A DNA stretch of 64,000 nucleotides from a virus: positions 50,809 to 114,808 of the IMG/VR virus record IMGVR_UViG_3300044642_000074, one strand, 5' to 3'. Positions 2,793 to 59,078 of this stretch are shown here, piece by piece. The notes under the pieces were generated by a model. That model made no database searches. It saw only the letters and a list, made by a program, of their open reading frames with translations, and had not been told where the DNA came from. The translations under genes were made by a program, and so were the position numbers. Each line of letters begins with the position of its first letter. The stretch's first letter is position 1.

Positions 2793-2806
2793 ATATCCTA
2801 TACCCC

Positions 2807-11800: not shown

Positions 11801-14800
11801 ACATATCTAGCTGTGAACAAAGAGATTGCGGTGGTAGAACAGCATAAGCTTATCTACGGTCATCCAGTTATGTATAAAGATTTGGCTAAGCGTGCAAACG
11901 GTGCCAACTCTAACAAAGATGCTATTGTAGATAACCACGAGATTGTCAAGTGGATGGATCAGAACATGCCGCGTTTGGATGGCAAGAAGCGTAGTAGCAA
12001 TACTACACAGACATTTAAGAATATTTCTTTCAAGGATGTTAATACGGTATCTGAGTTTTATAAAGAGATAGCAGAAAACATGTATGCTTCTATGAAGGAA
12101 GACATGTCAAAAGATGCTGCAGAAAAACGTATTGGTGTTAAGTTTGACGCCAAGGGTAAGTTCAAAAACTTTATCCTTGATGACAAGAAAGGATTTACCG
12201 GAGAGATCAAGGCTTATCTTAACCTTAATGAGGCGGACGCTCAGGCGTATATCATGCCTGATCTTTATAGAGACATGTTATACTTGTCTTCTAAGATCAG
12301 TAAGAACCAGCTTCGTCAGTGGGAGTATGAAAGAGCCTACGAGGTGGTAGCAAGAAGCTCAAAGCGTAAGGACCACCCTGCATATAAAAACTACTCTAAG
12401 ATTTATACTAAGGAACAAATGGCTGAGTTTAGGAAGATTGTTGAGGCCGGAAGCCCTGGTATAGTTATGCAGCCACTCAAACCTCAGTACTTTGGTTATG
12501 CTAATAACTCAAGCCTGATGCAGACCGTGTTCCTTAAACACTCGGTACAACCTAAGTTCTACCGTCAGGTAGAGGGCAGTCAGTTTGAAAAACTTTATTT
12601 GGCTGCACAGAACAATCAGGTAGATATTGTAGGCTTTGAGTCTGGAGAGAAAGTAGGTAACATGCTTAACAGCAAGGGAGAGTTCTTGCCTATATATAAT
12701 ACAGCCGGTGAAATTAACATACCGGTTCAGTATGATCAGAACGGAAACACCCAGTCTGTAAACCTTCCTGACGGCATGCCGGTACAGGAATTGTTTACCC
12801 GTTACTATGGTATTCAGCAGGAAGTACCTGCTCTTTCTAAGAGCAAGGTTGTACGCGGTACCCAGGTAACCAAGCTGGTTATGAGTAACTTCAAGGTAGA
12901 TGGTAAGTTTACATCTGCTGAAGCAGAAGCTAAGGTTAATGAGTACAATAGTATTCTAAGACAAATGATCCGTTTGGGTAAAGAGGAGTTATTAGAAGAG
13001 CTGGGTATGCAGAGACTTGGTGATGGAAGCTATATTGTTGCTGACATTAATAAGATGGTAAGCATGCTCAGGGAAGAGTTGGAAAAGAGAGATCTTCCAA
13101 ACAATTTGATTGATGGCTTACAGGCTACACCAGATGGTAGCAGCCTTATGTATAAGTTTGACACGCTGGCTAACCGTAATAAGATTGACAATATCCTGAA
13201 CTCTATTGTAGATAGCAGGGTAATTTCAGATAAGATGTTTGGTAAGTCTGCCGTACAGGTAGCTTCTACAGGTTTTGAAGGAGCTGGTCGTACAATGGTT
13301 TACCTAAATAATGGTGTATACGAAGAGGTTGCTGAAAATGAACTGACCGATGAACAGCGTGCAAGTGTACAGACTACATCCAATGAACTTAAGTTCTACC
13401 GTAATGAAAACGGCAGGATTCAAGGTATGGAAGTATACATATCCTGGTTCTTTGACGGAGTTAAACCTGAAGATGTTGGTTTAAAACTGGTTAACGGTAT
13501 TTACCAGATTCCGGAAAACTTTGACATGCGTTTACTGGAAGCTATCGGTTTTCGTATTCCTACTCAAGGTATGAACTCTATTGAGAACATCATCATCAAA
13601 GGATTCCTACCTAAGGAAGCCGGTGATATGGTGGTAGTTCCATCTGAGATTGTAGGTAAGGCCGGATCTGACTTTGACATAGATAAGCTAAACATGTACC
13701 TGTCTAACTACTATGTATTAGACGGAAAGATTAACTACCTGCAAGACGGGTTGACTACAGAACAGCTTACTGAAATAGCCAAGAAAATATATGCTGAGAA
13801 TACTGACACAAGAGTAGAAACTAATGAGTTTATTAACTCTGTTTTTGAAGGAATACCTAATGATGAAACAGAATTTGTTCAGTCTTTTGTAAAGAGTTAT
13901 GAGAAGAAGAATCTGCAGAACAAGTTTAAGAAAGTAATGCAGGATCTTGTTTCTCTACCTGAGAACTATCGTCAGTTGGTTGTACCTAACGGTGCCGCTA
14001 CACTGAAGTCTCTAGCTTCTGAGATCAATGAACTTAAGGGTAGAGATGATGCTGAGTCTTCATTCCTGGCCCTAAGAAAGTTTATTCCTATGGCTGAGGT
14101 ACGCCAACGTTACCTTACCGGTAAAGCAATGGTGGGTATCGCTGCCCTCCAGACTACCTCTCATACTATGAGTCAGGTATCTAGTATCAGACTTACCGGT
14201 ACATACGATCCTAAATCACTGTACTATCTTTTTGAAGGTACCCGTAAAAAAGAGATCATTGTTCGTCTGCCACATAACCGTACTGAAAACGGTGATCTAT
14301 ATCTCTATGCAAAGAAAGATCAGAGCGGACGTTGGATATCAGAACTTCTGTCTGAGGCATTGACTGGTTTCGTGGATGCAGCAAAAGATCCGTTTGTATT
14401 TGAACTTAACCTTAGTCTTGGTACAGCTGGTACCTGGTTTTATCTACAGAAGTTAGGTGTACCTGTTCAGGATATAGCTTACCTATTCAACCAGCCAATT
14501 GTTGACCAGTACATGAAGGAAGAGGCTAAGAACCGTTCTTACTTCAAGAAAGCCAACGATGAGTCACTGAGCAAGTTTTTGCTGATGATGAAGGTAGCTG
14601 CTCCTTATATGGATAACGTTCCTTCGTTAAGGGGAACTTATGAGAAGATCAACAACCTTCTTTCTGAAATAGAAAAGTTTGAGGACGCAGATATTCCTTT
14701 CCAGCTTAAGAATCAGCAGATCATTGGATTCAGAAAACAGATCAAGCAGCTTCGCCAGAAGACTGCAGATGAGCTTGCTTCTCTTAGAGACGAGTCTAAG

Positions 14801-16618
14801 ACACTTCGTACTGATGATCTAAGAGGTTCTATTGAACGCTATTATAGCAAAGGATATAAACTTAATGAGAAGGATTCAATCTTCCAGTTAGGTGTACTTT
14901 TAGATTATCTGGAATACAACTCTCAGGCTCAGTACTTGACTGAGTTTATTCGCTCTATTGGATATGATAATACCAAGACTAAGTCTATCATAGAGAACCA
15001 GTTGCAGAATACTCGTTGGGAAAAGATGCTGGGTAGTGAGTTTATTGCTAACCCAGAGGCTATTCTTGAGAATACTTTCATTGGTGAGATGAAAGAACAG
15101 AAGGAAGATCTTCCTAACCTGTTCCGTAATTTCTTTGTTTCTCTGCATCCTAAGGCTCAGCCGGTCTTTGAACCACTGAAAAGACAGATAAACAACCGGG
15201 ATATCTTTATGCTTCCTGATGCCCAGGCTGAGTTGATAAACAAATACCAGAACTTCTTTATAAATTATATTATACAGACTACTCCGTATATGAAGAACGG
15301 AATACAGACCAGCTTGAATGGTCAGTATGAAAACTTGATGAAAGGAGCAATGTCTATGGGTAAACAGCTGAAGATGCTTCGTGAGGTTCCTGATCCTAAT
15401 ATTTCTGAGAACCTAGTTGTAAAGGAACTCCTGCCTATCCTAACATCTGATTCTACGCAGGTAGATAATATCAAGCTGTTTAAGAATCGTATGGATACTT
15501 TTAAAAACAATATACTTATAGAGTCTGTAGACAATCTGTACAGCTATGCTAAGACTACTGGTAATATAGCTCTACAAAACTTTGTAGAAAATTTGGGAAC
15601 ATTTGCTATCTTGCAAACAGGTCTACAAGAAGGTGGTTTAAACTACACAAAGATTCTTCCAGTTCACCTCTATACAAAGGTTGTTAATGAGATCATGACC
15701 AACTTTACAGATGGTGTAGCAGAGGTTAATCCTCAGCTTGTTTGGAGACAGTTCCATCAGAACAACTGGAGAAACCAGAACATCACACCTAGAGTGAAGT
15801 TTGCAAAGAAAGATAAGCTTACCGGTAATTTATTACTTAGTGCAAGCTACAGTGATTCAGAGTATGACTATGTTTCTAAGACAACCATACGCCCTGACAT
15901 TGCCGGCCGTGCAAACGAGCAGAGAAGAGCTGAGCTCCTTAAGCAGAAGAGATACAATGAGGTGTTTGAGACTGTTATATATGAAAAGATTCAGAGTGAC
16001 CTGGATATGGGAGATGATACAAACGTAGCTTACCGACCTATACAAAAACTTGGAGACGTATATAAATTCGTGGAAGTATACGCAACAGACAGATCGTCTA
16101 TTATACCTCAGAACCTTACCGTGGATCTTACCACAGGAGCTCTTCAGGCTACTTATATTCCTCAAAGTGAAGTAAGTGTAGTAAGTGAAGCTAGTGCTGT
16201 AAAACCGGTACTGCCTCAGAATCAGGGTATGGCAATGCCTTCTAACTTAATCTTGAACCTAGGTGGAGTACAACCTGTTGCTGCTGAATCTAAAGTAGCA
16301 GAAGCTGCTTTAACACCAGTTGATAAAAATACTCTAAAAGATGGTGACGTTGTTTTTGACAAAAACGGAACCAGATTTACATTTAGAGGTTTAAGAGCTG
16401 AAGGACAAGTTGGTGCTCGTTCTCCAAGACTTGAAGAAGCCAATGGAAATATTGTTATTCCTGGTGAAAACATACAGCTTTTCCGTTCATCTGATCAGAA
16501 CATTTCCGATGCTCAGATCATTGCTAGCTCTGAATACAAAACCTGGGCTGCCAATAATGCTAATCCGTTAATGACTGACCAAGAGAATTTAGAATACTAT
16601 AAACAGTGTAAGTTATAA
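2807..16618 (+). CDS. Giant virion-packaged DNA-dependent RNA polymerase (crAss-type) with a degenerate zincin-like domain
   Basis: 4603 aa; RIPTQGMNS and GSDFDIDKL (DFDID at 13670-13684), ESGEKVG; Gly/Ala-rich hydrophobic N-terminal region; GFHEAFEAVW...EMLAE. Confidence 0.9.
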   Translation: MIENLFEQGLDNVDVPENLEETPGLELGNLDQPESPEQSPLGTPAPVQSTPSVDPPTKKYKSYEAALDAAELGAKKFFPFADTDFLRSKTVSGDRARKYNDMEYGYRYGVDMDDFYGEMESPLTTFAKGAGRFVLGVGTKVGQGAGFLLGLANPQNWDEDIITKASDNGITYLFDQLDEKTKQDWLPTFQEAADRDKGFWNKFFTDGDFWMTDAVDGAAFLVSAWVPGMALSKLGLGTKLAQSLSGLRLGVGGAEAAVEGAAMTQNYLTKANSIFKTGIDKFNAWALATSSEAMFEAAEARRGIIDSLTYDEFGRLKINPVTGTPYSEDEKRKIAGGAAQNSFLLNAALLAGTNALELRWIGSMFGAGERAAVSGITGATNLTDRMVAEQAVGKFSKFLSSGKGAFLSGATQGILAEGFVEENAQLAIQRVNQQYGMQGKVAEFGNLGDFITQFKNQTFNALIGKDPEAATSIGIGGILGTLGGGISSTIQQRKDRTLTEQVINAYNLAQDNWLKFGNIYKTQDVFTVDEQGTTVKTQQVVFDQNGEPVVDQEKLSGALTGYTAVTAALDEASKLQPGFQRDILRDTAFADFVTAHINAGIENTVIDKLNSLQKASPQDLAKLGFTVGENAEQQINRYKNLASAIINQNKLINSDILVDNSQEDKARKNYLLKLAADQAVYKSLVNENQTALTEIQNQLVTSENSSLSDGLVEQLNELAQRIKSQEEILQEMGTSPDTGIRKQVANQVLDELKQNYEQLEKDNTTTIQSLKKDKDGFYEYEKPGRNIPGVYDQYKKKVRLKGELQNQIKLNGLEWSKYADTKNGKQNFLQMFKEDIVDPLTQAAAEAQDAQSQLGKTITLTGTDANGNPKAIDITVGKLYVGKFTKSERYRGKQIVSVFNNDKIKILDISEDGSTVTIKANGEVMEMSAQELADIAIPENWRAFDSLTDDQKLYLTLRNQVIEYRVLERDASGKPIKQANGKYKTRVVKGRVAMNKNRTDLLFTYIDPTTNKKKFVDFDMRYVVNQESLEKLLTPQQFSVKSQEEKVKQKYETQKQFLTNLITETEAKLADADTRRQANVQEFQKLEEDLKGMREMLEEAVSFLEKNPYTRGRKSNAYKSMEELSQQLTDEINKKETQLAALQKEKEDLTNLLEALKSTNELYYQGLIELEETSQPFLADQSGSIFAQEQADLETAQDNQVTRRFNSSELEQMIEQTETEVELIDDRVNYLQGYINQLKKMLDKVLVFKDVADALMEITDREQLRNALKMLEDQSSVLADNTDVTKVGDILLPSAPVENIAPQVTDVIKKEIVKALRKGLARGDKGIEAQYTLELIQRLKDSVQEMDDLIQKRDELAPKLIRLETALQQKQLLTSLQERVNFLKTIQEGLLAQYEIRQQEILTQRQSKTAEVVQNQMMGDKLADEEVSQDSETYNFDVKKPLLAVHGLFTTAGRHFVDDADTELNMENNNALFYKLSAMADLLTDEFYLMPVTAENDTFGIRRPDVYGDDIKLVVVKKVGNEFKFVDANGEVLENPTKETLVYTSMHGNATMFGDNVQAAVDSVKNSFTTKGLTDAEILDHIKRFKAFRDKIKADIEAGRPAYVPVMGKSKGVQVFVEKDASGLPQELPMEGRLISEDTADYTNMTHPDGQGISLVVSTLKDNTAVDVKPGRVIMQKADGTGFRVFNRQLSQEEKDNFINTLKVLTGLLARKNSTTSPLSKQEALDLSDVLTYLNGLVFWTKQDSISQSENKFYINQDNGMLYRGTNAVALTADAIEAAKETLTKDLYHQVNNNLVKLNDPFFQVIVDENMKISKVEYQNYVHYLLGTQDMKGQNRRLGTPVVYTNTPAYSPDDLTPQLKSVFFTYQDPDNPIIPKVTVTQNNIAFPAAQAQPNGQPVVGTAATGFVINPAAFGATAPAASQQQTPAPAVAAQNPFIFNPAGFTAQPQAQPAAQPQPAVPGFVFNPNQPVQPQSTTQAPANPFILNTAEFVAPPQPVFPTTQTATPGASTLISTILSDQYQQSMPSMSDPSTKVSNVYREALDTLKKREDFKKVAKWFSEKLPQISVEKVAELIDGIAWGAFKNGAVYISENAEEGTGFHEAFEAVWGSYLTVEEQMELAKAFRSLEGEFTNPFTKETKPYSQASMYDVREMLAEGMRDYMLERSTYGGKILAFFKELWNAIKALVGLGNINEAEELINNVYKSINQGKYVNAKQVRDVSMMGTAYSQAIPGTTQEFSTQFTEGLTGFFFMNLYASQKNIDSLLDKYSNTNQLLKQLFVQSLEDMKSYLVGPMSNFAQRYVNVARKQLGRDLTQDELNFLYTQYLNQDRNAYQIEQAFGQPKYVYDNLKASLKKFGLQFKELTSQEDEEFINNKEESVTDALGIRDAIFIDPRRLTAVNFRMLLGSLTSDTYDSAYKSDTNPMGIVFEKNNLGLPKLIDFDNVHNMLINELNGSASRIEGGKFIDALTEMMNKLDKKYKNINGTYKPGYVWIQRLKNRLKYAGTEGSYFTTANITADDIALMIGFEKSLLNKQNLPVKTIIGENGYIFDTDPIQTNSESKIREEWENNVMTSTQPLSRKSQSSLLGVDDKGMIVIDRSSYAYAGNPADTSKPHLSMSRPTFNQIIEILSEFGIKFTASNEELKKHKVAINRSYSAIREKIIDGTISTMQDLYGRNVVNKAITDLVEIQAEYSAEDNVLMHLTAEGKPQYSITLPSNITYVLNSLNDAKNLADFVSSNPQFGFVDQSGNVALHPYQSRSLLLKPGGLIFDADGNKRLDMDVKYHLISGVAAQDSDGTNTSDLTYPDRVMQEIHYLLKNIHYTIINSDKSTEFALGLNNSFVSFREASAGIDSADFSKVINIYMDQLEDEIDSAVREQELPSNIQYYSKEVKQLGHYRDILGPALVKEFTDKVLKKKMTKQDFMNKPAVQAAIKNHITGLASETLQGLIDLDIIKATQVGTTTAGKPVFEYSTKAISQEQLSLLKLDGSQMNQADIESLMTYLAVNKEIAVVEQHKLIYGHPVMYKDLAKRANGANSNKDAIVDNHEIVKWMDQNMPRLDGKKRSSNTTQTFKNISFKDVNTVSEFYKEIAENMYASMKEDMSKDAAEKRIGVKFDAKGKFKNFILDDKKGFTGEIKAYLNLNEADAQAYIMPDLYRDMLYLSSKISKNQLRQWEYERAYEVVARSSKRKDHPAYKNYSKIYTKEQMAEFRKIVEAGSPGIVMQPLKPQYFGYANNSSLMQTVFLKHSVQPKFYRQVEGSQFEKLYLAAQNNQVDIVGFESGEKVGNMLNSKGEFLPIYNTAGEINIPVQYDQNGNTQSVNLPDGMPVQELFTRYYGIQQEVPALSKSKVVRGTQVTKLVMSNFKVDGKFTSAEAEAKVNEYNSILRQMIRLGKEELLEELGMQRLGDGSYIVADINKMVSMLREELEKRDLPNNLIDGLQATPDGSSLMYKFDTLANRNKIDNILNSIVDSRVISDKMFGKSAVQVASTGFEGAGRTMVYLNNGVYEEVAENELTDEQRASVQTTSNELKFYRNENGRIQGMEVYISWFFDGVKPEDVGLKLVNGIYQIPENFDMRLLEAIGFRIPTQGMNSIENIIIKGFLPKEAGDMVVVPSEIVGKAGSDFDIDKLNMYLSNYYVLDGKINYLQDGLTTEQLTEIAKKIYAENTDTRVETNEFINSVFEGIPNDETEFVQSFVKSYEKKNLQNKFKKVMQDLVSLPENYRQLVVPNGAATLKSLASEINELKGRDDAESSFLALRKFIPMAEVRQRYLTGKAMVGIAALQTTSHTMSQVSSIRLTGTYDPKSLYYLFEGTRKKEIIVRLPHNRTENGDLYLYAKKDQSGRWISELLSEALTGFVDAAKDPFVFELNLSLGTAGTWFYLQKLGVPVQDIAYLFNQPIVDQYMKEEAKNRSYFKKANDESLSKFLLMMKVAAPYMDNVPSLRGTYEKINNLLSEIEKFEDADIPFQLKNQQIIGFRKQIKQLRQKTADELASLRDESKTLRTDDLRGSIERYYSKGYKLNEKDSIFQLGVLLDYLEYNSQAQYLTEFIRSIGYDNTKTKSIIENQLQNTRWEKMLGSEFIANPEAILENTFIGEMKEQKEDLPNLFRNFFVSLHPKAQPVFEPLKRQINNRDIFMLPDAQAELINKYQNFFINYIIQTTPYMKNGIQTSLNGQYENLMKGAMSMGKQLKMLREVPDPNISENLVVKELLPILTSDSTQVDNIKLFKNRMDTFKNNILIESVDNLYSYAKTTGNIALQNFVENLGTFAILQTGLQEGGLNYTKILPVHLYTKVVNEIMTNFTDGVAEVNPQLVWRQFHQNNWRNQNITPRVKFAKKDKLTGNLLLSASYSDSEYDYVSKTTIRPDIAGRANEQRRAELLKQKRYNEVFETVIYEKIQSDLDMGDDTNVAYRPIQKLGDVYKFVEVYATDRSSIIPQNLTVDLTTGALQATYIPQSEVSVVSEASAVKPVLPQNQGMAMPSNLILNLGGVQPVAAESKVAEAALTPVDKNTLKDGDVVFDKNGTRFTFRGLRAEGQVGARSPRLEEANGNIVIPGENIQLFRSSDQNISDAQIIASSEYKTWAANNANPLMTDQENLEYYKQCKL
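8440..8830 (+). repeat. Pro/Ala/Gln-rich linker with four F-x-x-N-[PT] repeats inside the vRNAP
   Basis: GFVINPAAF, NPFIFNPAGF, GFVFNPNQP, NPFILNTAEF. Confidence 0.75.
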
Positions 16619-16622
16619 ACCT

Positions 16623-19600
16623 ATGAAGTGTCTTAATACATCTTTACCTACTGTACAAGAAAGTTTGGCAGTAATCAAGTCTGAGCCCATGGTGGCTAAG
16701 ATCTTGGATATGCTGGATGAAAACGCTACTTCCCAAGACGTTATAAAAAAGTACAATGACATGTACAATAAGTCTGAGGAAGGAACAAAACTGAACCAGA
16801 AAGTCATGAGCTTTCTGGACAAGATTGGTGTATCTGTAGAAAAGGTAAACCAGATCAAGGATGCTGAAGGTAATCCTTTGCAAGCTACAGCCAAGGCTGA
16901 TATGCTCAATAAGATTATTCAGGTTATTGAAGGTCGTGCTGATCTTAACACATTATCTGAGGAAGCCGCTCACTTTTTTGTAGAGATGCTGAACGATGAC
17001 AGTCCGTTGCTTAAAGAGATGATGGATAAGATCACCGGTTATGATCTGTATAGACAGACTGTAGAAAGATATAAGAATCTGCCTGAGTATAGACTTCAGG
17101 GAGGTGGTGTTAACTTTCCTAAGCTTAAGAAGGAAGCTATTGGTCAGCTGATAGCTCAGGCTATTATCAGACAGGAACAAGGGAATGAGACTGATGAACG
17201 TCTTGGTTTCTTGATGAAATGGTGGAGCAAGCTTTGGGACTTTGTTACTAAGTCTTTTAGCAGGGTAGAGGAGAATCCGTTTGAAACAGCTGCTCAGCAA
17301 ATTGTAGCCGGGGAAACTGCAGACTTAGAAGTAAACAAAGACATAGAAGGTGTATACTTTCAGCTTGATGATAGTATAAACAAACTAAAGGACGAGCAAA
17401 GCAGATTGACACTAGATAACAGTGTTGATCCGCGTACTGGACAGAAGCGTCACGTATACAATCGTGATGGCAAAGTTGTAAAGTTAAACGTTACTACAGC
17501 TAAAGTAGACCCATACTATAGAAGCATATTCCCTAATGACAAAAGAGACGAGCGTAAAAAGCAGGTTGACCTTGAAAAAGCTCAGTACGGGGACATGATC
17601 CACGCTACTATAGAAGCAATCATTGATACTTATATTGATCCAATAACAAAGAGACGCAGGGTTAGCCCGGCTCAGTCAAGATCTCAATACGTAGGTACTG
17701 ACTTCTATAATACCTTGGACGCTTATGTACGTGAGTTGATCAGTACATACGATCCTAATACCGTGTTTATGCGTGAGGTTAAGGTTTATGACCCAACTCA
17801 AGACATGGCAGGTAGTATTGACTTGATTGCCGTTACACCGGATGGTACCGTGAATGTTTATGACTGGAAGAGTCAGGAAGTAGGTAAAGGTAAAACTGAA
17901 CTTCCTTCTTATAAAGAAAAGGCATACAAGATTCAGCTGCAGGAATATGTAAACATACTTAGAAATGTATACGGCTTTAATAAGTTTGGTAAGATAAGAG
18001 CCATTCCTATTAAGACAAACTTTGCTTATACGGGTCCTGTAGGAGCTAAGCAGCTTTCCGGATTAAATAGTGTGGAGATCGCACCTGTTGACTCTCGTTT
18101 AACAGATCCATCTAAAGATTACTTGCTACCAATTACTTTAAAAGAAGATAAGGAAGAAGATGAAAGTCTTTCTGAAATGATTGGTAAGCTTAACAGCTTG
18201 TTAGAGCGTTTTGAAAACACAGCTAAGAATGCTAGAGCTTCCGAAAGAATTAAGATGCAGGATCAGATTGATCGTTACAGAAAAGCTATCAGGGATCTAC
18301 ATCTTAGAAAAGATATTAGGAAATTTATTGAGCTAGGTACTTTTGAAGTTAACCGCTACCAGAAGAAACTAAATGAAAACACCCTTACAGAAAAGGATGC
18401 TTTAGAATCACTAGATATCTTAAAGGTTTTCTCTGGTACTACCTATTACTTTAAGAACTATATGGGCCAGCTTCGTGCTGCATTAAATGCAGAGCAGGAT
18501 CCGAATGTAAAACAGATTTACCAGGATATCATCAATAACTATAACTCTCTTAACTCTAATGCTGAGATTACAGTAAAAGAAATGGAGAAGGCTATTTTGG
18601 AAATAGGTAAGAAGGTAGCTGAAGAAAAAGGAGGTATTCAGAATCTGATGATGTCAGAAAAAAAGATTGGTTCTGCTGCCGGATTCTTTGATGCTCTTAG
18701 CCAAATACCACAAAGAGCTTTTAAAGCTTTTTACAGAATACTTAGCGATGCTCAGAATAAACGTGACCTTTTATATGCAGAGTCTGTAAAAACCTTGGGT
18801 CAGCTTAAGACAGATCTTGATGCCTGGGCTAGAAATAAAGGTCTTGCTGGAGAAAGAATGTTTGACGGACTATTGGAAATAGATGAGAAAGGTAACTGGA
18901 ACGGTGAGTTTCTTAGAAAATATAATAAGCAAGCATATAAAGAACGTAAGAAAGCTATTGATGGTGCGGATATAAACTGGATCAAAGCTAATATGACTTT
19001 TGATAAAGCCTGGTATGAAAAAGACCTGGCTTCATACGTCAAGTATGTAGAGTCTATGCAGTATGATACAGATCCTCAGATAAACGCTGCTATTCAACAG
19101 CGTACAATCAATAACTGGATCTCTAACTTTAACGTTGCTGCAAACGGTCAGAATGACTTTGCGTTGTTAAATGTACAAAACAAGTACATGAGATTTAATG
19201 ATAACTGGATTACTGACAAGTGGAAGAACCTGCAGAAGCCAGAGAATGCACCGTTAAAGAAAGTGTATGATGAGTTCCAGAAACTTCTACGTAGGTCAGA
19301 AGACTTAGGTATGATAGATGAATACTCTTGGGACTTTATTCCGTCTATCTACAAAGGAAAGCTAGATCATATTGCTTTTGGTGGTAGTGTGTTTACCTCA
19401 AAAGGATTTTTAGAAGAGCTACAAGTAGCAACCGGAGACAACTATACACCACAGATAGATCCTATTACCGGTAAGGTTATGATGAACATACCTGTTCATT
19501 TTACCCAGGATATTGGGGTAGAAAAAGAAGATGGTACAGTTGATTACTCTCAGAAGAGTAGAGATCTTTTTAAAGTATTTGGTGTATGGTCTGCACAGAT

Positions 19601-21242
19601 GGCTTCCTACGAAGCTATGAGTGAGATAGAAGATGCTGCCAATATACTTGTCCATGTGGAAAAGAACAAGGATTCACTTGTTACTGATAACTGGGGTAAT
19701 GTAGTTATTGAGAATAACTCAGCTAAGGTTGCAAAAGGAAATGAGCGTAATGCTAAACTACTTGAGGACTTTGTAAACTTCTACATGTATAACAAGATGA
19801 GTGACAATACCTCTGATACTAAGTTTAAGTTCAGAGATAAAGAATACTCTCTTAATAAGACTGCCAGATGGTTTATGAAATTCTTCTCGTTAAAGACTCT
19901 TGCGTTAAACCCTATATCAGGTACAGCACAGTTTGTTGGTGGTACCGGTAACGCTTTGTTTCTTGCTGCCAAGAAAACTATATTTACTACAGGAGACTGG
20001 ACCAGCTCAGTTTATCAAGTTACAAAACGTGATCCTAAGACTATTGCACTATTACACTATGCGGATATTCTTTTAGAAGACCGTAAAGAGGCCAGGTCAA
20101 CAGAGCTTTCTGTATCTAAGATTGTACAGTTTAATACGATGGACAAAATGTATTTTATCCAACGTGCTTCAGATAAAGCTGTTCAGTATCCTGTTGCTAT
20201 TGCTACAATGATGAACCACATGGTTGATGAAAACGGTAATATTGTAGATATTACAAAGACAGTTAAGAAAGAGTTTGATTATGACAAAGTGTTTTATAAC
20301 GTATCTCCTGAGGAGCGTAATGCTCTTAAAGAAAAGATAGATGCTAAAGTAAAAGAACTAAAGGAAAACAAGTCAATCTATGCTACTACCAAGATTGTAA
20401 ATGACAAGCTTGAGATTCCAGGAATAGATATTAACTCTCAGGAGTGGGCCAAGTTCAGAGGTAAGATCAAGCAGGTTAATAAAACAATCCTGGGTAACTC
20501 TACCCGTGATGATATTAACTCAGTACGAACTACACAGTTAGGTATGGCTTTAATGCAGTTCCGTTCATGGATGCCTCAGATGGTTAAAGAGCGTTTTGGT
20601 AAACTGAATTATAACCAGGATCTTGATCTGTACTCAATGGGTAAGACTAGGTTATTTTTTGGAGAGATTATTAAACACCCGTTAACTATTGCTAAGTCTA
20701 TTATATCTAGTTCCGGAACAAACATGATTGAAGCTGCTAAGCAGCGTTATATTCAAGAAAGAGCTGATGCTGCTTTAGAGGGAAGAGACTTTACTTTAAG
20801 TGAAGCTGAGTTTATTGATATGTATGTTGGTAATATCAGGTCCCAGATCCGCGAGTTGGCTACAGTTATTGGGGTACTCTCATTGATTATGATGGCTAAG
20901 CCTGGGGATGATGATGACAAGCATGAGAAAGGTGTTAGAAAATACATAGCCCGAGCTTTAGAAAAATACTATGCGGAGTTTTCATTCTACTATCTACCTA
21001 CATCATTTACAGAACTAGTTAACTCACCATTTCCTGTGGTAGGTTTAGCTACTGATTTTATTAGCTTTACTGAAGCTAGTGGTAAACAGTTTTACGGATA
21101 TGTAACAGATGATGCCAAGATACAGAAAGACGCTAAACCTCTTAAGTATGGCTCAAGATTACTACCTATATTAAAAGAAGGTATCATGATGAGGGCCATC
21201 TTTGATGATGACTTTAGAAAAGAATGGGATATCAGATTATAA
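16623..21242 (+). CDS. Large virion cargo protein with zincin-like remnant and PD-(D/E)xK nuclease domain
   Basis: 1539 aa; LSEEAAHF; GDMIH...AGSIDL...VYDWKS...YKIQLQEY. Confidence 0.75.
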   Translation: MKCLNTSLPTVQESLAVIKSEPMVAKILDMLDENATSQDVIKKYNDMYNKSEEGTKLNQKVMSFLDKIGVSVEKVNQIKDAEGNPLQATAKADMLNKIIQVIEGRADLNTLSEEAAHFFVEMLNDDSPLLKEMMDKITGYDLYRQTVERYKNLPEYRLQGGGVNFPKLKKEAIGQLIAQAIIRQEQGNETDERLGFLMKWWSKLWDFVTKSFSRVEENPFETAAQQIVAGETADLEVNKDIEGVYFQLDDSINKLKDEQSRLTLDNSVDPRTGQKRHVYNRDGKVVKLNVTTAKVDPYYRSIFPNDKRDERKKQVDLEKAQYGDMIHATIEAIIDTYIDPITKRRRVSPAQSRSQYVGTDFYNTLDAYVRELISTYDPNTVFMREVKVYDPTQDMAGSIDLIAVTPDGTVNVYDWKSQEVGKGKTELPSYKEKAYKIQLQEYVNILRNVYGFNKFGKIRAIPIKTNFAYTGPVGAKQLSGLNSVEIAPVDSRLTDPSKDYLLPITLKEDKEEDESLSEMIGKLNSLLERFENTAKNARASERIKMQDQIDRYRKAIRDLHLRKDIRKFIELGTFEVNRYQKKLNENTLTEKDALESLDILKVFSGTTYYFKNYMGQLRAALNAEQDPNVKQIYQDIINNYNSLNSNAEITVKEMEKAILEIGKKVAEEKGGIQNLMMSEKKIGSAAGFFDALSQIPQRAFKAFYRILSDAQNKRDLLYAESVKTLGQLKTDLDAWARNKGLAGERMFDGLLEIDEKGNWNGEFLRKYNKQAYKERKKAIDGADINWIKANMTFDKAWYEKDLASYVKYVESMQYDTDPQINAAIQQRTINNWISNFNVAANGQNDFALLNVQNKYMRFNDNWITDKWKNLQKPENAPLKKVYDEFQKLLRRSEDLGMIDEYSWDFIPSIYKGKLDHIAFGGSVFTSKGFLEELQVATGDNYTPQIDPITGKVMMNIPVHFTQDIGVEKEDGTVDYSQKSRDLFKVFGVWSAQMASYEAMSEIEDAANILVHVEKNKDSLVTDNWGNVVIENNSAKVAKGNERNAKLLEDFVNFYMYNKMSDNTSDTKFKFRDKEYSLNKTARWFMKFFSLKTLALNPISGTAQFVGGTGNALFLAAKKTIFTTGDWTSSVYQVTKRDPKTIALLHYADILLEDRKEARSTELSVSKIVQFNTMDKMYFIQRASDKAVQYPVAIATMMNHMVDENGNIVDITKTVKKEFDYDKVFYNVSPEERNALKEKIDAKVKELKENKSIYATTKIVNDKLEIPGIDINSQEWAKFRGKIKQVNKTILGNSTRDDINSVRTTQLGMALMQFRSWMPQMVKERFGKLNYNQDLDLYSMGKTRLFFGEIIKHPLTIAKSIISSSGTNMIEAAKQRYIQERADAALEGRDFTLSEAEFIDMYVGNIRSQIRELATVIGVLSLIMMAKPGDDDDKHEKGVRKYIARALEKYYAEFSFYYLPTSFTELVNSPFPVVGLATDFISFTEASGKQFYGYVTDDAKIQKDAKPLKYGSRLLPILKEGIMMRAIFDDDFRKEWDIRL

Positions 21243-37083: not shown

Positions 37084-37662
37084 TTAGGTTTCTGAAAGAA
37101 TTTCTGGGTTGTCTACAATCATCTGGCAATAGTCAGCCAGGAGGGATCTGCTAGTCTTAGTAGAGGTATCTGTACGCTGGATAAAGTAGCTGCTGGTAGT
37201 AATATACTCCAGGTTTTCTCTACCCTTGGTGTAGATATAATAGTCTGTGGCATCTAGTACAAGTGCCCAGTCAAATTCAGGGTAGGTTTTGAAGAACCAG
37301 ATAAACTTTTGTTTAAGTTCCTGGACCGTCTGTCTTAAGAGGCCTACCCGGGGAACTCTTTTAGCAGGGAACATTTCACGATAAGTGTTGATGCATTGTA
37401 AAGCATTCATACCCAATACTTCAGAGGCTACCTTCTTCTTAGTTTTGACCAGAAGAGTCTCAAATTCATCTAGTACAAACAGGGCTCCTGAGGTCAGGTT
37501 ACCGTTTGCATCTAGGTGTCCTCTGTTCTGTGCTACCAGTCTTTCTGCGTCTTCATTGATAATACCGGTGGGTTTGATTTTGTTCCGGCAGCAATCAAGG
37601 AAGTACAGCTGGTTCGGGCTCACATTGTACTTGATCAGTGTCGTCCAAAGTTGATGACTCAT
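37084..37662 (-). CDS. Hypothetical replication-associated protein (possible initiator/loader)
   Basis: 192 aa upstream of DnaB; YREMFP...ATDYY...YFI pattern. Confidence 0.45.
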   Translation of the reverse strand: MSHQLWTTLIKYNVSPNQLYFLDCCRNKIKPTGIINEDAERLVAQNRGHLDANGNLTSGALFVLDEFETLLVKTKKKVASEVLGMNALQCINTYREMFPAKRVPRVGLLRQTVQELKQKFIWFFKTYPEFDWALVLDATDYYIYTKGRENLEYITTSSYFIQRTDTSTKTSRSLLADYCQMIVDNPEILSET

Positions 37663-38089
37663 AATTACTCTTTAAGGTTTTAAGGATACTAGTGTACTTG
37701 TGTTGGAAAGGCTCACAGGTTTCTAACAGGTTTTTGCAGGCTGTTATGGCATGGATCACTGTTGTATGATCTTTACCCAGAAACTTACCAATGACGGTAA
37801 GGTTATACCCCATTTGCCTGGCCAGTAGGCAGAAGATGTTTCTTAGTTCTACTAAAGGCCGGTTCCTGCTTCTGCTTTGCAGACACGTGGGTTTGTCAAA
37901 GAAAACAGGCATGAAAGGTTTAAGGTTATCCTCTAACATTTCAAGAGACATGATTGGTATTTCAGCGTTTTCTGAGGTATACATTTGGGTTATTACTGTT
38001 GGGTAATAGCCCAGTTTGTTATAAAACACTGACTTAAATTCTGTAATCAGTTTTTTTTCAAGCATAGCTGCGTAGCTTTTTGAATCCAT
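37595..38089 (-). CDS. Stand-alone DnaA C-terminal (domain IV) HTH protein
   Basis: SRSRNRPLVELRNIFCLLARQ...IGKFLGKDHTTVIHA matches the DnaA domain IV DHTTV signature; no AAA+ domain. Confidence 0.8.
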   Translation of the reverse strand: MDSKSYAAMLEKKLITEFKSVFYNKLGYYPTVITQMYTSENAEIPIMSLEMLEDNLKPFMPVFFDKPTCLQSRSRNRPLVELRNIFCLLARQMGYNLTVIGKFLGKDHTTVIHAITACKNLLETCEPFQHKYTSILKTLKSNYESSTLDDTDQVQCEPEPAVLP

Positions 38090-38200: not shown

Positions 38201-38473
38201 ATGGCAAAGAAGTTTTACGCCCAGAAGGATGTCCTGGGTTTTCCTATTCCTGGTACTATGATGAGTGGAGAAAAGGTTCCTGCCAACTTGATTGAGATTC
38301 CTGCACAGAATGTTGCTCCTGGAGCTGGTCAAGTAGCTGTACCACACCCTGGTGATCTTCGCTATTTCGTACGTAAGGACAAGAGTGGAAAGATCATCCC
38401 TAACTCACTGATTATCAGTTTAAAAAAGCCTGCTGGGGATGTTTATGAGTTTAAACTTATAAAGGCTAGCTAA
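38201..38473 (+). CDS. Hypothetical protein
   Basis: 90 aa, first gene of the plus-strand operon. Confidence 0.7.
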   Translation: MAKKFYAQKDVLGFPIPGTMMSGEKVPANLIEIPAQNVAPGAGQVAVPHPGDLRYFVRKDKSGKIIPNSLIISLKKPAGDVYEFKLIKAS

Positions 38474-38781: not shown

Positions 38782-39019
38782 ACAATGGATTCTAGATCTA
38801 TTCAAAGATGAGAGAGGTTCTACCTCGATCAAACCTGTTGTAGGTTTTATGGGGGCCTTGTTTCTCTGTATAACTCTTACTGCTAACTCTTTTACTCACG
38901 GTGATATTAAACCTTCTGATGCTCTTGTGGATGCTGTACTGATTATGACCTGTGTAGGTATTGGAGCAGACAGTGTAGATAAATTTAGCCACAAGAAAAA
39001 GAAAGAAGATGAAGCTTAG
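38771..39019 (+). CDS. Putative holin (2 TM)
   Basis: Start at MTFKQWIL; two TM segments and a highly charged C-terminus (KKKKEDEA). Confidence 0.55.
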   Translation: MTFKQWILDLFKDERGSTSIKPVVGFMGALFLCITLTANSFTHGDIKPSDALVDAVLIMTCVGIGADSVDKFSHKKKKEDEA

Positions 39020-39641
39020 TAAATATGCCATTATAGTTCTAGCAGTAATTGGTCTGATTATTTTATCCAGATTAGGTTGTAACAACGGTCTTGGGTTTTT
39101 TGATAAACCTACAGCAGACACTGTAGTTACTATTGATACTTTATGGCAAGAACATGATACAGTAATCTATAAAAAGGTACCTGTAAAAGAAATCATTTAC
39201 GACATAGATACTTTGCCTCCTCAGTATATTCCAGATACAAACTATGATAAGTTAAAAGAACAGTATGAGCTTCTTGTAAAAGAGCATGCTTCTAAAGTAA
39301 TTCAGTTTGATACACTTAGAATACCCCAGCTTAAAGGCGGATTTTATATAAAGGATACTGTTCAGTTTAATAAAATATCTGGAAGATCATTTGAAGCTGA
39401 TTATGTTATACCTGTTGTAAAAGAAACAATTACTATTACAAAAGAAACTCCTAAAAGGAATCAGCTATATATTGGAGGTGGTGTAAATACTGCTAAAACA
39501 TTTGTGCCTCAGTCACTAGAAGCGGGGCTTTTACTCAAAACTAAACGTGATCAGATAATGGGTGTAAAAGCCGGATCTGATATTAACGGTAATATAACAT
39601 ACGGCTTCCAGAGTTACTGGAAGATTGGATCTAAAAAATAA
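39009..39641 (+). CDS. Putative spanin-like envelope protein
   Basis: N-terminal TM/lipobox-like LGC, DT-rich segments, beta-rich C-terminus ending YWKIGSKK; lysis cassette. Confidence 0.5.
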   Translation: MKLSKYAIIVLAVIGLIILSRLGCNNGLGFFDKPTADTVVTIDTLWQEHDTVIYKKVPVKEIIYDIDTLPPQYIPDTNYDKLKEQYELLVKEHASKVIQFDTLRIPQLKGGFYIKDTVQFNKISGRSFEADYVIPVVKETITITKETPKRNQLYIGGGVNTAKTFVPQSLEAGLLLKTKRDQIMGVKAGSDINGNITYGFQSYWKIGSKK

Positions 39642-57029: not shown

Positions 57030-57224
57030 TTAGTGGGTAGTTTTACTACGCATAAGGTCGTTGAAACGACGTTTCCAGTATGCATTAGTTTTGTTGATGT
57101 GTTCTTGCCTCTCCACCAGTTTTTCCCTGAGCTCTTTGTTTTCCTGCTCAAGTACTTTTACCTTGGTCCACGGAAATAGCTTGTTCAACCATTCTAGCAT
57201 AGTGTGTTTAGTATTTAATGTCAA
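57030..57224 (-). CDS. Small coiled-coil hypothetical protein
   Basis: 64 aa (MLEWLN is a possible start). Confidence 0.5.
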   Translation of the reverse strand: MTLNTKHTMLEWLNKLFPWTKVKVLEQENKELREKLVERQEHINKTNAYWKRRFNDLMRSKTTH

Positions 57225-57555
57225 CTACTTCAGGAGATACGTATACACTTTTAACATTTTGAATATCTAGTGTAGTTCCGTTAACCATAAGTTTAAATCC
57301 TTGATTAGTAGATGACGGGTTAACGATAGTTTGATTTGTTGCTGCGTTCGTCTTTGTTTGACGTGTAGCTCTTTTTTTCCTCGCTGTTCTGTACAACGGT
57401 TGCAGGGCTCCTGCTTTTACTAGTTTCTTTCGGATATAAGATACTTGAGCATAACTTAATCCGGATACTGAAGCTACGTCACTTAGTTTTTCACCACTAA
57501 CCAGCATTTTATTTACTTCTTGCTGAGTGTTTGAGTCTACTTTACTTGTAAACAT
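57208..57555 (-). CDS. HTH DNA-binding protein (paralog B)
   Basis: GEKLSDVASVSGLSYAQVSYIRKKL; C-terminal FKLMVNGTTLDI. Confidence 0.75.
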   Translation of the reverse strand: MFTSKVDSNTQQEVNKMLVSGEKLSDVASVSGLSYAQVSYIRKKLVKAGALQPLYRTARKKRATRQTKTNAATNQTIVNPSSTNQGFKLMVNGTTLDIQNVKSVYVSPEVVDIKY

Positions 57556-57634: not shown

Positions 57635-57991
57635 TTAGAAGTTGATTTCCATGCTATCTTTATTTATGTTAATATTTTTAGCATGGCCAGATATTTTAAC
57701 AGAGGTTCCGTTAACTATAAAATTATACTCTTCAGAATTTATCTGTTGAGATGATGAGCTAATTTGTCCTGTAGCATTAGAAACTGGTCTTATTGTTTCT
57801 ACTGAACCAGTAGGACGTTTACCTCTAACTGAAGGGAATTTAAACCCATCAGCTTTAAACCTAGCTTTATAATTGTGTACGGATGAAATAGCTACTCCAA
57901 AATGTTTGGCTATATCTTCAGGAGAATTACCGTTTTTAACCATCAGTTTCATCTGTTCTACCTGATCATGTGAAAGACGTTTGTGTGCCAT
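57635..57991 (-). CDS. HTH DNA-binding protein (paralog A)
   Basis: GNSPEDIAKHFGVAISSVHNYKARF; C-terminal YNFIVNGTSVKI; start at MAHKRL; TAATTTTG at 58016-58023. Confidence 0.75.
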   Translation of the reverse strand: MAHKRLSHDQVEQMKLMVKNGNSPEDIAKHFGVAISSVHNYKARFKADGFKFPSVRGKRPTGSVETIRPVSNATGQISSSSQQINSEEYNFIVNGTSVKISGHAKNININKDSMEINF

Positions 57992-58085
57992 AAAGTTCTT
58001 CTTTTTAGACCAAAACAAAATTACATCTTTTCACAGGATTATTAGATTTTGTATATTTACATGTACGTTTTCTGTTAATAAGCCT

Positions 58086-58183
58086 ACGTAACTAATTGAT
58101 TATCAACGTGTGCATCTGCCTTACAAGCAGAGGGTCGGCGGTTCGATCCCGTCAACTCCCACTTGATTATCAATGAGTTACGT
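58086..58183 (+). other. attP site: 3' 51 nt of tRNA-Val(TAC) (58112-58162) between 21-bp inverted repeats with IHF-like sites
   Basis: TCTGC-CTTACAA-GCAGA anticodon arm, GGCGG-TTCGATC-CCGTC T-arm, AACTCCCAC; no 5' acceptor strand or D-arm; both arms match WATCAANNNNTTR; adjacent to the integrase. Confidence 0.85.
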
Positions 58184-58208
58184 GGTATAACTACTAAAAA
58201 AGTTAACC

Positions 58209-59078
58209 ATGTTTCTTACGAAATCTTTAGATTACGCTTTTTCAAAGCTAAAAGTGGAGCCACATACCCGAGAGTGTGTGGCTTCTTCATTGAAATATAT
58301 CCAACTTTCTATACGGGCTCTGGGATATAATCAGATAGAAGCACATCGTATAACGCGTAAGCATGTTCGTTTGATAATGGATCAGTGTGAGCAAGATAGA
58401 AATCTTTCTGCTCGTAGCTGGAACGCATACAGAACCTACCTGGGCATGCTGTTTGAACAGCTTATGGAGTACGAACTGATAGAAAATAATCCAGTATTAC
58501 AACTCCGTAAAAAGCAGGAAGATGAGGTTGTGCGTACCGTTCTGACGCTAGAACAAAGAAAATTACTGATAGAACACTTAAAAGAAACCGACCCGGTCTT
58601 CTTAAGATTCATACAAATCTTCTTTCACTCTGGTGCCAGGCGTACTGAGCTACTTGATTTACGTATAGAAAACATACACTTAGATAAAGGATATTACCAG
58701 GTCTTTGTCAAAAAGGGACGAAAGAAACGCTGGGTAACCAAGGTAATTAAGGAAATAGCCCTGCCCTTCTGGAGGGAACAGATTGGTAATCACATATCCG
58801 GTTATATATTTTCTATAGGCTTATTACCTGGTGGTAAACCTATTCGTCCAGAACAGGTTACCCGCAGGTGGAAACGTCATGTAAAGGATAAACTTGACAT
58901 TACAGCAGATCTGTATAGTTTGAAGCATCTTAATACAGATGAAGTATCATCTGAGCTATCTCTTATAGAGGCAGCTAAGCATAACTCTCACTCTGTGCAG
59001 ATGGCCAAAAAACATTATGCTGTTAATGAAACGTTGCGTGAATTGGAACGAGTCAGGAAGATCAAGAATGAGCTTTAA
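58209..59078 (+). CDS. int: Tyrosine recombinase/integrase
   Basis: SAM-like N-terminal part, HSGARRTELL, VKKGR, LYSLKHL, HNSHS, KKHY. Confidence 0.9.
   Translation: MFLTKSLDYAFSKLKVEPHTRECVASSLKYIQLSIRALGYNQIEAHRITRKHVRLIMDQCEQDRNLSARSWNAYRTYLGMLFEQLMEYELIENNPVLQLRKKQEDEVVRTVLTLEQRKLLIEHLKETDPVFLRFIQIFFHSGARRTELLDLRIENIHLDKGYYQVFVKKGRKKRWVTKVIKEIALPFWREQIGNHISGYIFSIGLLPGGKPIRPEQVTRRWKRHVKDKLDITADLYSLKHLNTDEVSSELSLIEAAKHNSHSVQMAKKHYAVNETLRELERVRKIKNEL

Follow-up and report, generated by a model that had tools for sequence, protein, structure and literature searches.

A conserved attP with a tRNA-Val 3' part and an arm-less tyrosine integrase suggest tRNA-directed integration of a freshwater, distantly crAss-like phage in Chitinophagaceae

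crAss-like phages are mostly described as non-integrating, and the way in which they persist is debated; a carrier state, host phase variation and a phage-plasmid lifestyle have been proposed. The locus analyzed here raises the question whether such a phage carries a working integration module and in which bacteria it would insert, because an initial annotation proposed an intact attP beside a tyrosine recombinase and, hence, a temperate crAss-like phage targeting tRNA-Val(TAC). The window, i.e. the whole stretch of 64,000 nucleotides that was analyzed, represents the last 64 kb of a 114,808-bp IMG/VR virus record, which is classed as linear and 88% complete. The record opens with a tRNA-Met followed by the genes for TerL, portal and major capsid protein (MCP). 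The phage-encoded tRNA-Met(CAT) is situated at genome positions 330-401, just before TerL and outside the window, while TerL, portal and MCP follow in conserved order (genome positions 866-8942), with matches to phrogs 6681, 6547 and 11589. Aligned over more than 90% of its length, the TerL protein shows 24-26% identity to its counterparts in crAss-like phages; crAssphage, Carjivirus and uncultured 'cr' phages supply the best TerL matches listed. For the MCP, identity amounts to 22-24% with crAss-like phages and to 28% with the Leptolyngbya phage Lbo-JY46. The proposed crAss-like affiliation therefore holds only at a distance (TerL about 25%, MCP 22-24% to Crassvirales), and judged from these proteins the phage is crAss-like only in a broad sense. 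It is recurrent in lake and other freshwater metagenomes (about 19 studies), and its genome size is roughly 115-128 kb. Two giant open reading frames of 4603 and 1539 aa without an informative PHROG match occupy window positions 2807-21242; they may represent the virion RNA polymerase block of crAss-type phages.

The features of the locus are as follows, with coordinates referring to the window:

57208..57555, minus strand: HTH protein of 115 aa, weak HTH_28 match
57635..57991, minus strand: HTH protein of about 118 aa from the ATG at 57991, HTH_23 and HTH_7 matches
58052..58066, plus strand: conserved intergenic block, nearly invariant in a three-phage alignment
58086..58106: left arm, AGTTAC (minus strand), 3 nt and the palindrome TGATTATCA
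58112..58162, plus strand: 3' portion of a tRNA-Val(TAC), starting where the D stem ends and including the discriminator and one further nt; identity block of attP and attB
58113..58133, plus strand: proposed core, in which the 7-nt anticodon loop 58120-58126 is enclosed by inverted half-sites (58113-58119 and 58127-58133, complementary at 6 of 7 positions)
58163..58183: right arm, TGATTATCA, 3 nt and AGTTAC, the mirror image of the left arm
58209..59078, plus strand: tyrosine integrase of 289 aa, arm-less (core-binding and catalytic domains only), PF00589 and phrog_1 matches

The tRNA piece, the arms and the integrase of the initial annotation were thus all recovered at their positions. The two arms of 21 bp each are complementary at 19 of 21 positions, which agrees with the inverted arrangement with two mismatches described before; 56 nt lie between them, and a weaker dyad reaches out to 39 nt per side. 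The tRNA piece comprises the anticodon stem-loop, the variable loop, the T arm, the 3' strand of the acceptor, the discriminator A and one extra C, and its anticodon loop CTTACAA contains the anticodon TAC. A whole tRNA was not detected in the window by ARAGORN, and the Rfam tRNA model recognized on the piece only the anticodon and T arms with 21 bits, below the gathering score. The integrase reading frame begins 25 bp past the right arm, as had been noted. The loop 58120-58126 is taken as the putative overlap or crossover region. The intergenic block at 58052..58066, which we take to resemble the -7 element of Bacteroidota, could possibly be a promoter directed towards attP and int.

The sequence WATCAANNNNTTR is found in both arms, on the minus strand at 58089-58101 and on the plus strand at 58168-58180. 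Such matches to the IHF consensus are indeed present in both arms but do not exceed expectation in the window as a whole (5 found versus 5.0 expected), and they are regarded only as a lead. A third exact copy of TGATTATCA occurs at window positions 38409-38417 between the open reading frames 37595-38089 (minus strand) and 39009-39641 (plus strand); either chance or a shared operator may account for it. Direct repeats of the arm type are missing from the window, in which only single GTTAC- or GTTAAC-like words exist inside the dyad.

The tRNA piece permits statements on the host. Its 50-nt exact match was found in at least 120 contigs of GTDB species-representative genomes, nearly all of them belonging to Chitinophagaceae or other Chitinophagales; the remaining exact matches come from a few Sphingobacteriales, Saprospiraceae and one Pseudolactococcus. 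Among the matches listed, every copy of the 50 nt is part of a complete tRNA-Val(TAC), so that the expected match to a host tRNA does exist in many Chitinophagaceae; a strain of Pollutibacter soli is one example of an isolate with the exact sequence. Identity between phage and bacteria spans 58112 to 58162, after which the bacterial loci run into ordinary terminators. In an even sample of 381 Chitinophagales genomes, the tRNA 3' part was present in 18 genomes if T-loop variants are allowed, 6 with the T loop of the window and 12 with a one-base variant. Because only 18 of these 381 genomes share it, the core points, as far as the sequence match can tell, to a subset of Chitinophagaceae and not to a species; the earlier expectation that the core identifies the host is therefore satisfied at about the family level but not at the species level. 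The T-loop variant of two related phages (L126 and L127, see below) was not found in the 381 genomes, and searching the viral contig collection with the exact 50-mer gave no match. As a side observation, the Firmicute Pseudolactococcus insecticola (L029, L091) has an identical 50-nt 3' part of tRNA-Val in combination with a different D loop.

The integrase was identified by its profile matches to PF00589 (E 4e-8, 33.6 bits versus a cut-off of 27.1) and phrog_1 (E 1e-23). Its AlphaFold model (pLDDT 88) superimposes best on residues 75-356 of lambda Int (TM 0.70-0.73), and Foldseek assigned a probability of 1.00 to lambda Int, XerA, Tn1549 Int and Cre; PDB entry 5vfz is also among the fold matches. 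The assumed lack of an arm-binding domain was verified in several ways, since residue 1 aligns just after the N-terminal extension of about 75-110 aa of the long relatives, the fold corresponds to lambda Int 75-356, and a stop codon at 58188-58190 before the ATG blocks any N-terminal extension of the reading frame. A separate arm-binding domain was searched for in the phage genome by tblastn, which returned nothing better than E = 0.16. The database relatives include 289-aa proteins with 67-99% identity on contigs of up to 127 kb as well as longer proteins of 336-450 aa with 35-67% identity, some of which are encoded on megabase bacterial contigs.

The catalytic residues deserve attention, because the initial annotation had pointed to YSLKH at the position of the HxxR box. 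In an alignment of 15 sequences R144, K169, Y236, K239, H240, H261 and Y270 are invariant, and in the profile search YxLKH aligns with HxLRH of XerA, and H261 and Y270 correspond to His-II and the catalytic Tyr. Arg-I (R144), the catalytic Lys (K169), His-II and the nucleophilic Tyr are thus all in place. Hence, the motif does occupy the HxxR position and the canonical box is absent, Y236 and K239 replacing His-I and Arg-II in the entire family, but no sign of inactivity is connected with it. Since YxLKH is invariant across the family, integrated members included, the Tyr/Lys catalytic box is, according to the alignment, a family trait and not a lesion.

The locus is conserved in related phages. 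Four IMG/VR contigs (L126, L127, L128 and L129) encode TerL proteins that are 80-93% identical to that of the phage, and they share with it the same order of opposite-strand HTH gene, intergenic block, left arm, tRNA-Val 3' part, right arm and int. One of these contigs is 127.7 kb long and 99% complete, and it carries int about 23 kb upstream of TerL; because int and attP are found inside a 99%-complete contig, the site is internal to the free phage genome. Together with the phage genes on both sides of the site, this supports the view that the attP is intact and represents the unintegrated form. The dN/dS of int amounts to 0.06-0.14, which means strong purifying selection. Compared with L127, the window has reached saturation at the synonymous sites of int (dS > 2), but in the tRNA piece the two differ at no more than 2 nt, both in the T loop. 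The attP layout is therefore not due to chance, since it has been kept in four diverged relatives despite the saturated synonymous sites of the adjacent gene.

The same comparison bears on the nature of the arms. The blocks AGTTAC and TGATWATCA are fixed in L126, L127 and L128, and the 3-nt spacer between them varies without compensation, a pattern that by sequence comparison fits protein-binding sites. The arms were also considered as a selected DNA or RNA stem, which was rejected on account of the uncompensated spacers and the fixed blocks. Moreover, L128 and L129 (TerL 92-93%) harbor a 364-aa allele of the integrase with an arm-binding domain, although they have the same arms and the same tRNA-Val piece as the window. 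In these two phages extra repeats of CTCTAACA exist twice on the right side and as an inverted copy on the left side, and the window is devoid of them. Because L128 and L129 keep both arms besides the extra repeats, the mirror-image arms are distinct from the sites of the arm-binding domain. The attP region of the 364-aa allele with the extra CTCTAACA repeats is located at L128:2590-2790 (L128 TerL 93%). The 289-aa form is the commoner allele and occurs on dozens of contigs. Judged from the alignments, the short allele seems to have arisen by deletion, and yet it is common and has been conserved.

Relatives of the integrase also exist in bacterial chromosomes. They were found in 26 of 401 Chitinophagaceae genomes as proteins of about 400 aa with 35-45% identity. 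A tRNA gene is situated directly upstream in the same orientation at 22 of the 30 loci that were fetched; these tRNAs are specific for Val, Met, His, Arg, Lys, Ser, Ala or Gln. At most of these loci, tRNA gene and int are separated by a hairpin and tandem direct repeats, often of the GTTAAC or GTTACC type, after which the start codon follows. Several loci reveal the borders of elements. In genome G183, tRNA positions 32-76 recur as an exact 45-nt repeat at a distance of 47.4 kb from tRNA-Val plus int. A 43-kb element in G118 is bounded by tRNA-Val and a 60-nt repeat that starts at tRNA position 17, 5' of the loop. In G179, the attL-type and attP-type sites of related elements (C67 versus C77) are similar from tRNA position 33. 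Loci of this kind and their attL/attR repeats lead to the conclusion that the integrase family, judged from locus structure, integrates at tRNA genes. Regarding the position of strand exchange, the identity blocks of G183 (attR repeat) and G179:C67 (attP-like) begin at tRNA positions 30-33, and the block in the phage clade begins at tRNA position 24-26, that of the window reaching from position 24 to the end of the tRNA. The crossover was placed at the anticodon loop because two of the three family identity blocks start there. G179, a 2.2-Mb Chitinophagaceae MAG, harbors six copies of the integrase family on small contigs (C13, C67, C77 and others).

As for the integrated form of the phage itself, searches with MCP and TerL detected no integrated copy in about 800 Chitinophagaceae and Chitinophagales genomes. 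TerL was present in none of 401 Chitinophagales genomes, and an MCP relative was found in one of 401 Chitinophagaceae genomes, namely on a 23-kb fragment of G179 with about 30% identity, which is collinear with the TerL-to-tail block of the phage. At the bacterial tRNA-Val loci (at least 120 in the collection), the phage arm was found in 0 of 120. In the contigs of four lake runs neither attL nor attR was seen; the contigs either break in the tRNA piece or bridge the intact attP, as does one lake contig of 9.7 kb. The breaks inside the tRNA piece are explained by its sequence being common to bacterial tRNAs, so they do not represent evidence of absence. A search of the viral contig collection for the attL-type pattern returned only the two known attP contigs. 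Hence, the attL/attR junctions that the initial annotation had suggested to look for did not turn up for this phage at tRNA-Val loci, in about 800 genomes or in the contigs of four lake runs, and its temperate character is deduced from the intact attP and the conserved integrase but not from a prophage or attL/attR. No repressor or excisionase was identified in the variant of the window, in the case of the repressor without a systematic search.

A junction scan of metagenome contigs with a pattern of tRNA 5' side, core and start of the right arm gave six contigs (L140-L145), in which a whole tRNA-Val is directly followed by TGATWATCA. Five of the six junctions continue with AGTTAC or GGTTAC (L143 differs), and in all of them a hairpin and direct repeats come next. 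The upstream side carries bacterial genes at L140, L142, L143 and L144, where flanking sequence is present, and the downstream genes of the elements, where identifiable, include an AbiE toxin-antitoxin pair and a gp3 packaging protein. These junctions were considered as copies of the phage under study, which was rejected, because there is no Int within 0.2-2.4 kb, the downstream genes differ, and there is no match beyond 70 nt. As far as can be read from these contigs, they show elements with the arm motif of the phage sitting integrated at tRNA-Val. The gene for tRNA-Val(TAC) appears as an insertion hot spot, the six junctions having a common arm motif combined with different cargo and different direct repeats.

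Further information comes from the neighboring genes. The HTH gene at 57635..57991 is divergent from attP and int, and it is adjacent to this slot in all relatives of the clade (58-74% identity); its product is a candidate regulator or accessory factor. The 115-aa HTH protein is a paralog of its 127-aa neighbor protein (24% identity, E 8e-5) and has been kept in L126 and L128. Beside the chromosomal relatives of the integrase, the two HTH proteins were not found. In two more distant IMG/VR members of the clade, L198 and L199, whose HTH proteins are 58-60% identical, an unrelated cassette has been placed between the same flanking genes (L198:844-2437, L199:842-2437); L199 encodes a TerL with 81% identity and its record is 97% complete. 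This alternative cassette consists of an IntDOT-like integrase, an HTH_17 gene and an intergenic attP. Its integrase of 370 aa has a canonical catalytic box and contains the domains Arm-DNA-bind_5 and SAM_5, its Xis-like HTH_17 protein comprises 82 aa, and its attP combines TTTACAAC repeats with the 3'-terminal 22 nt of tRNA-Asp(GTC). Of 201 Chitinophagaceae genomes, 117 contain this tRNA-Asp 22-mer. The occurrence of three versions of a tRNA-targeting module at one position argues for selection for integration in this lineage and for Chitinophagaceae as the host family.

Collectively, our data support the notion that the locus is a working site-specific integration module that inserts at the tRNA-Val of Chitinophagaceae, a reading that we regard as likely. 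The attP and the integrase are real and conserved and very probably functional, whereas the lysogenic lifestyle, the crossover position and the activity of the short form are what we infer from them. According to the proposed mechanism, the integrase would bind two inverted half-sites, which are formed by the anticodon stem of tRNA-Val(TAC), in attP as well as in attB, and strands would be exchanged across the 7-nt anticodon loop via Tyr270. The phage would supply the rest of the tRNA, leaving the host gene intact after insertion. The predicted attL then would consist of the whole tRNA-Val, the right arm and int, and the predicted attR of the left arm, the duplicated 3' part of the tRNA and the host terminator. 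The mirror-image arms (AGTTAC, 3 nt, TGATWATCA) most likely would serve as sites for an accessory or architectural protein; putative binders are the adjacent phage HTH protein or an IHF/HU-like protein of the host. The arm-less enzyme probably acts as a simple integrase of the Brujita type. A more special version of this scenario assumes that a heterobivalent integrase naturally shed its arm-binding domain together with the arm repeats, remained active under purifying selection, and uses the dyad accessory sites bound by another protein, either the phage HTH protein or an IHF/HU-like protein of the host; this version is put forward as a rather doubtful suggestion.

Features counted against integration at tRNA-Val, besides the failure to find an integrated copy or junction, are the Lys/Tyr residues in place of Arg-II/His-I, the missing arm domain and repeats, the failure to identify a repressor or excisionase, and the lack of the T-loop variant of L126 and L127 in the 381 genomes. 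It might be possible that the integrase lost its ability to integrate along with the domain and repeats, which would make the locus a decaying relic and the phage effectively lytic. Such a loss would be in line with the failure to find a prophage or junction and with the fact that the closest long-form allele keeps the domain and the repeats that the short form is devoid of. However, the 289-aa form is the commoner one on dozens of contigs, it is under strong purifying selection, and its att site has stayed exact to the host tRNA across saturated synonymous divergence; furthermore, arm-less integrases can be active, for example that of Brujita in the account of Lunt and Hatfull (2016) given in PMC8138268. 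We therefore consider decay to be improbable. Somewhat less probable still is that the recombinase serves the phage genome itself in the circularization or multimer resolution of a plasmid-like prophage, comparable to Cre/lox in P1. An arm-less enzyme at a dyad-symmetric site would suit this function, and non-integrative persistence as a phage-plasmid is described for the prototypic crAssphage (PMC10983915). But a resolution site would not need an exact 51-nt copy of a host tRNA reaching to its 3' end, the sister phages hold the full arm-dependent form on the same site, and in other clade members the same slot is occupied by a classical module of Int, Xis and tRNA-Asp.

The tRNA piece and the arms could also be imagined as a landing pad or decoy for other elements, or as a leader structure of int. 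The region folds well as single-stranded DNA (z = -5.1), and tRNA-Val is a hot spot for several different elements. The uncompensated 3-nt spacers and fixed blocks, however, fit protein sites and not a stem, and the order of tRNA 3' part and int is the layout of the integrated family members, which leaves this idea with hardly any probability. Insertion at the tRNA-Val of Chitinophagaceae thus remains the preferred reading.

Several implications arise from this reading. Interchangeable tRNA-targeting cassettes at one position argue for integration as a selected trait of this freshwater branch, and a host family, Chitinophagaceae, can be named for an uncultured phage that is widespread in lakes. 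The allele pair with and without the arm-binding domain on the same att site provides a direct test of the roles of domain and arms, and the family-wide Tyr/Lys catalytic box represents a testable departure from the canonical pentad. If the more special version with the shed arm-binding domain is true, the long and short alleles in one species group (TerL 92-93%) and the unrelated cassette of Int, Xis and tRNA-Asp would constitute a natural experiment, in a lysogenic crAss-like phage infecting Chitinophagaceae of lakes, on how the architecture of attP and the control of directionality evolve.

Regarding known systems, the cultured Cellulophaga phage phi46:1 encodes an integrase of the same family with 33.6% identity and the same YxLKH motif. 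The integrases of about 400 aa from Chitinophagaceae and Flavobacteriia and those from metagenomes show 35-53% identity and have YxLKH and the tRNA-then-int layout in common with the locus. However, the enzymes of phi46:1 and the relatives of about 400 aa begin with about 100 aa that form an arm-binding domain, and tandem repeats of the GTTAAC or GTTACC type directly precede their start codons; both are missing from the window. Like the lambda-type heterobivalent systems, the locus has an attP with a tRNA 3' part that restores the gene and an int gene beside it. It differs from them in that an arm-binding domain and arm-type repeats are absent, mirror-image bipartite arms abut the tRNA piece, and Tyr/Lys replace His-I/Arg-II; the RKHRH pentad of tyrosine recombinases is otherwise strictly preserved (PMC8138268). 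The integrase of the mycobacteriophage Brujita, which is characterized as arm-less, active and directionless where PMC8138268 cites Lunt and Hatfull (2016), is similar to the enzyme of the window in consisting of core-binding and catalytic domains only and in its appearance (5vfz) among the fold matches. The likeness concerns domain content and fold; the enzyme of the window originates from an arm-dependent family of Bacteroidota and not from the Xer-like simple recombinases.

Among crAss-like phages, integrase-bearing Crassvirales have already been published, and the general idea has precedents. Integrative lysogeny was stated to occur at low rates in Crassvirales (PMC10983915), epsilon-group crAss-like prophages have been reported in Parabacteroides (PMC11054128), and modules of integrase, excisionase and repressor are known from mouse-gut Intestiviridae and the Zeta group (PMC13503771). 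A literature search did not find a link of crAss-like phages with Chitinophagaceae. The particular traits of the present case are an integrase allele without the arm-binding domain, arms in mirror image, a catalytic box with Tyr and Lys, and the exchange of cassettes. Compared to the published integrase-bearing crAss-like phages, the present phage is thus distinguished by its freshwater habitat, a host among the Chitinophagaceae, its distant relation to Crassvirales, its arm-less integrase and the swapping of modules in a single slot.
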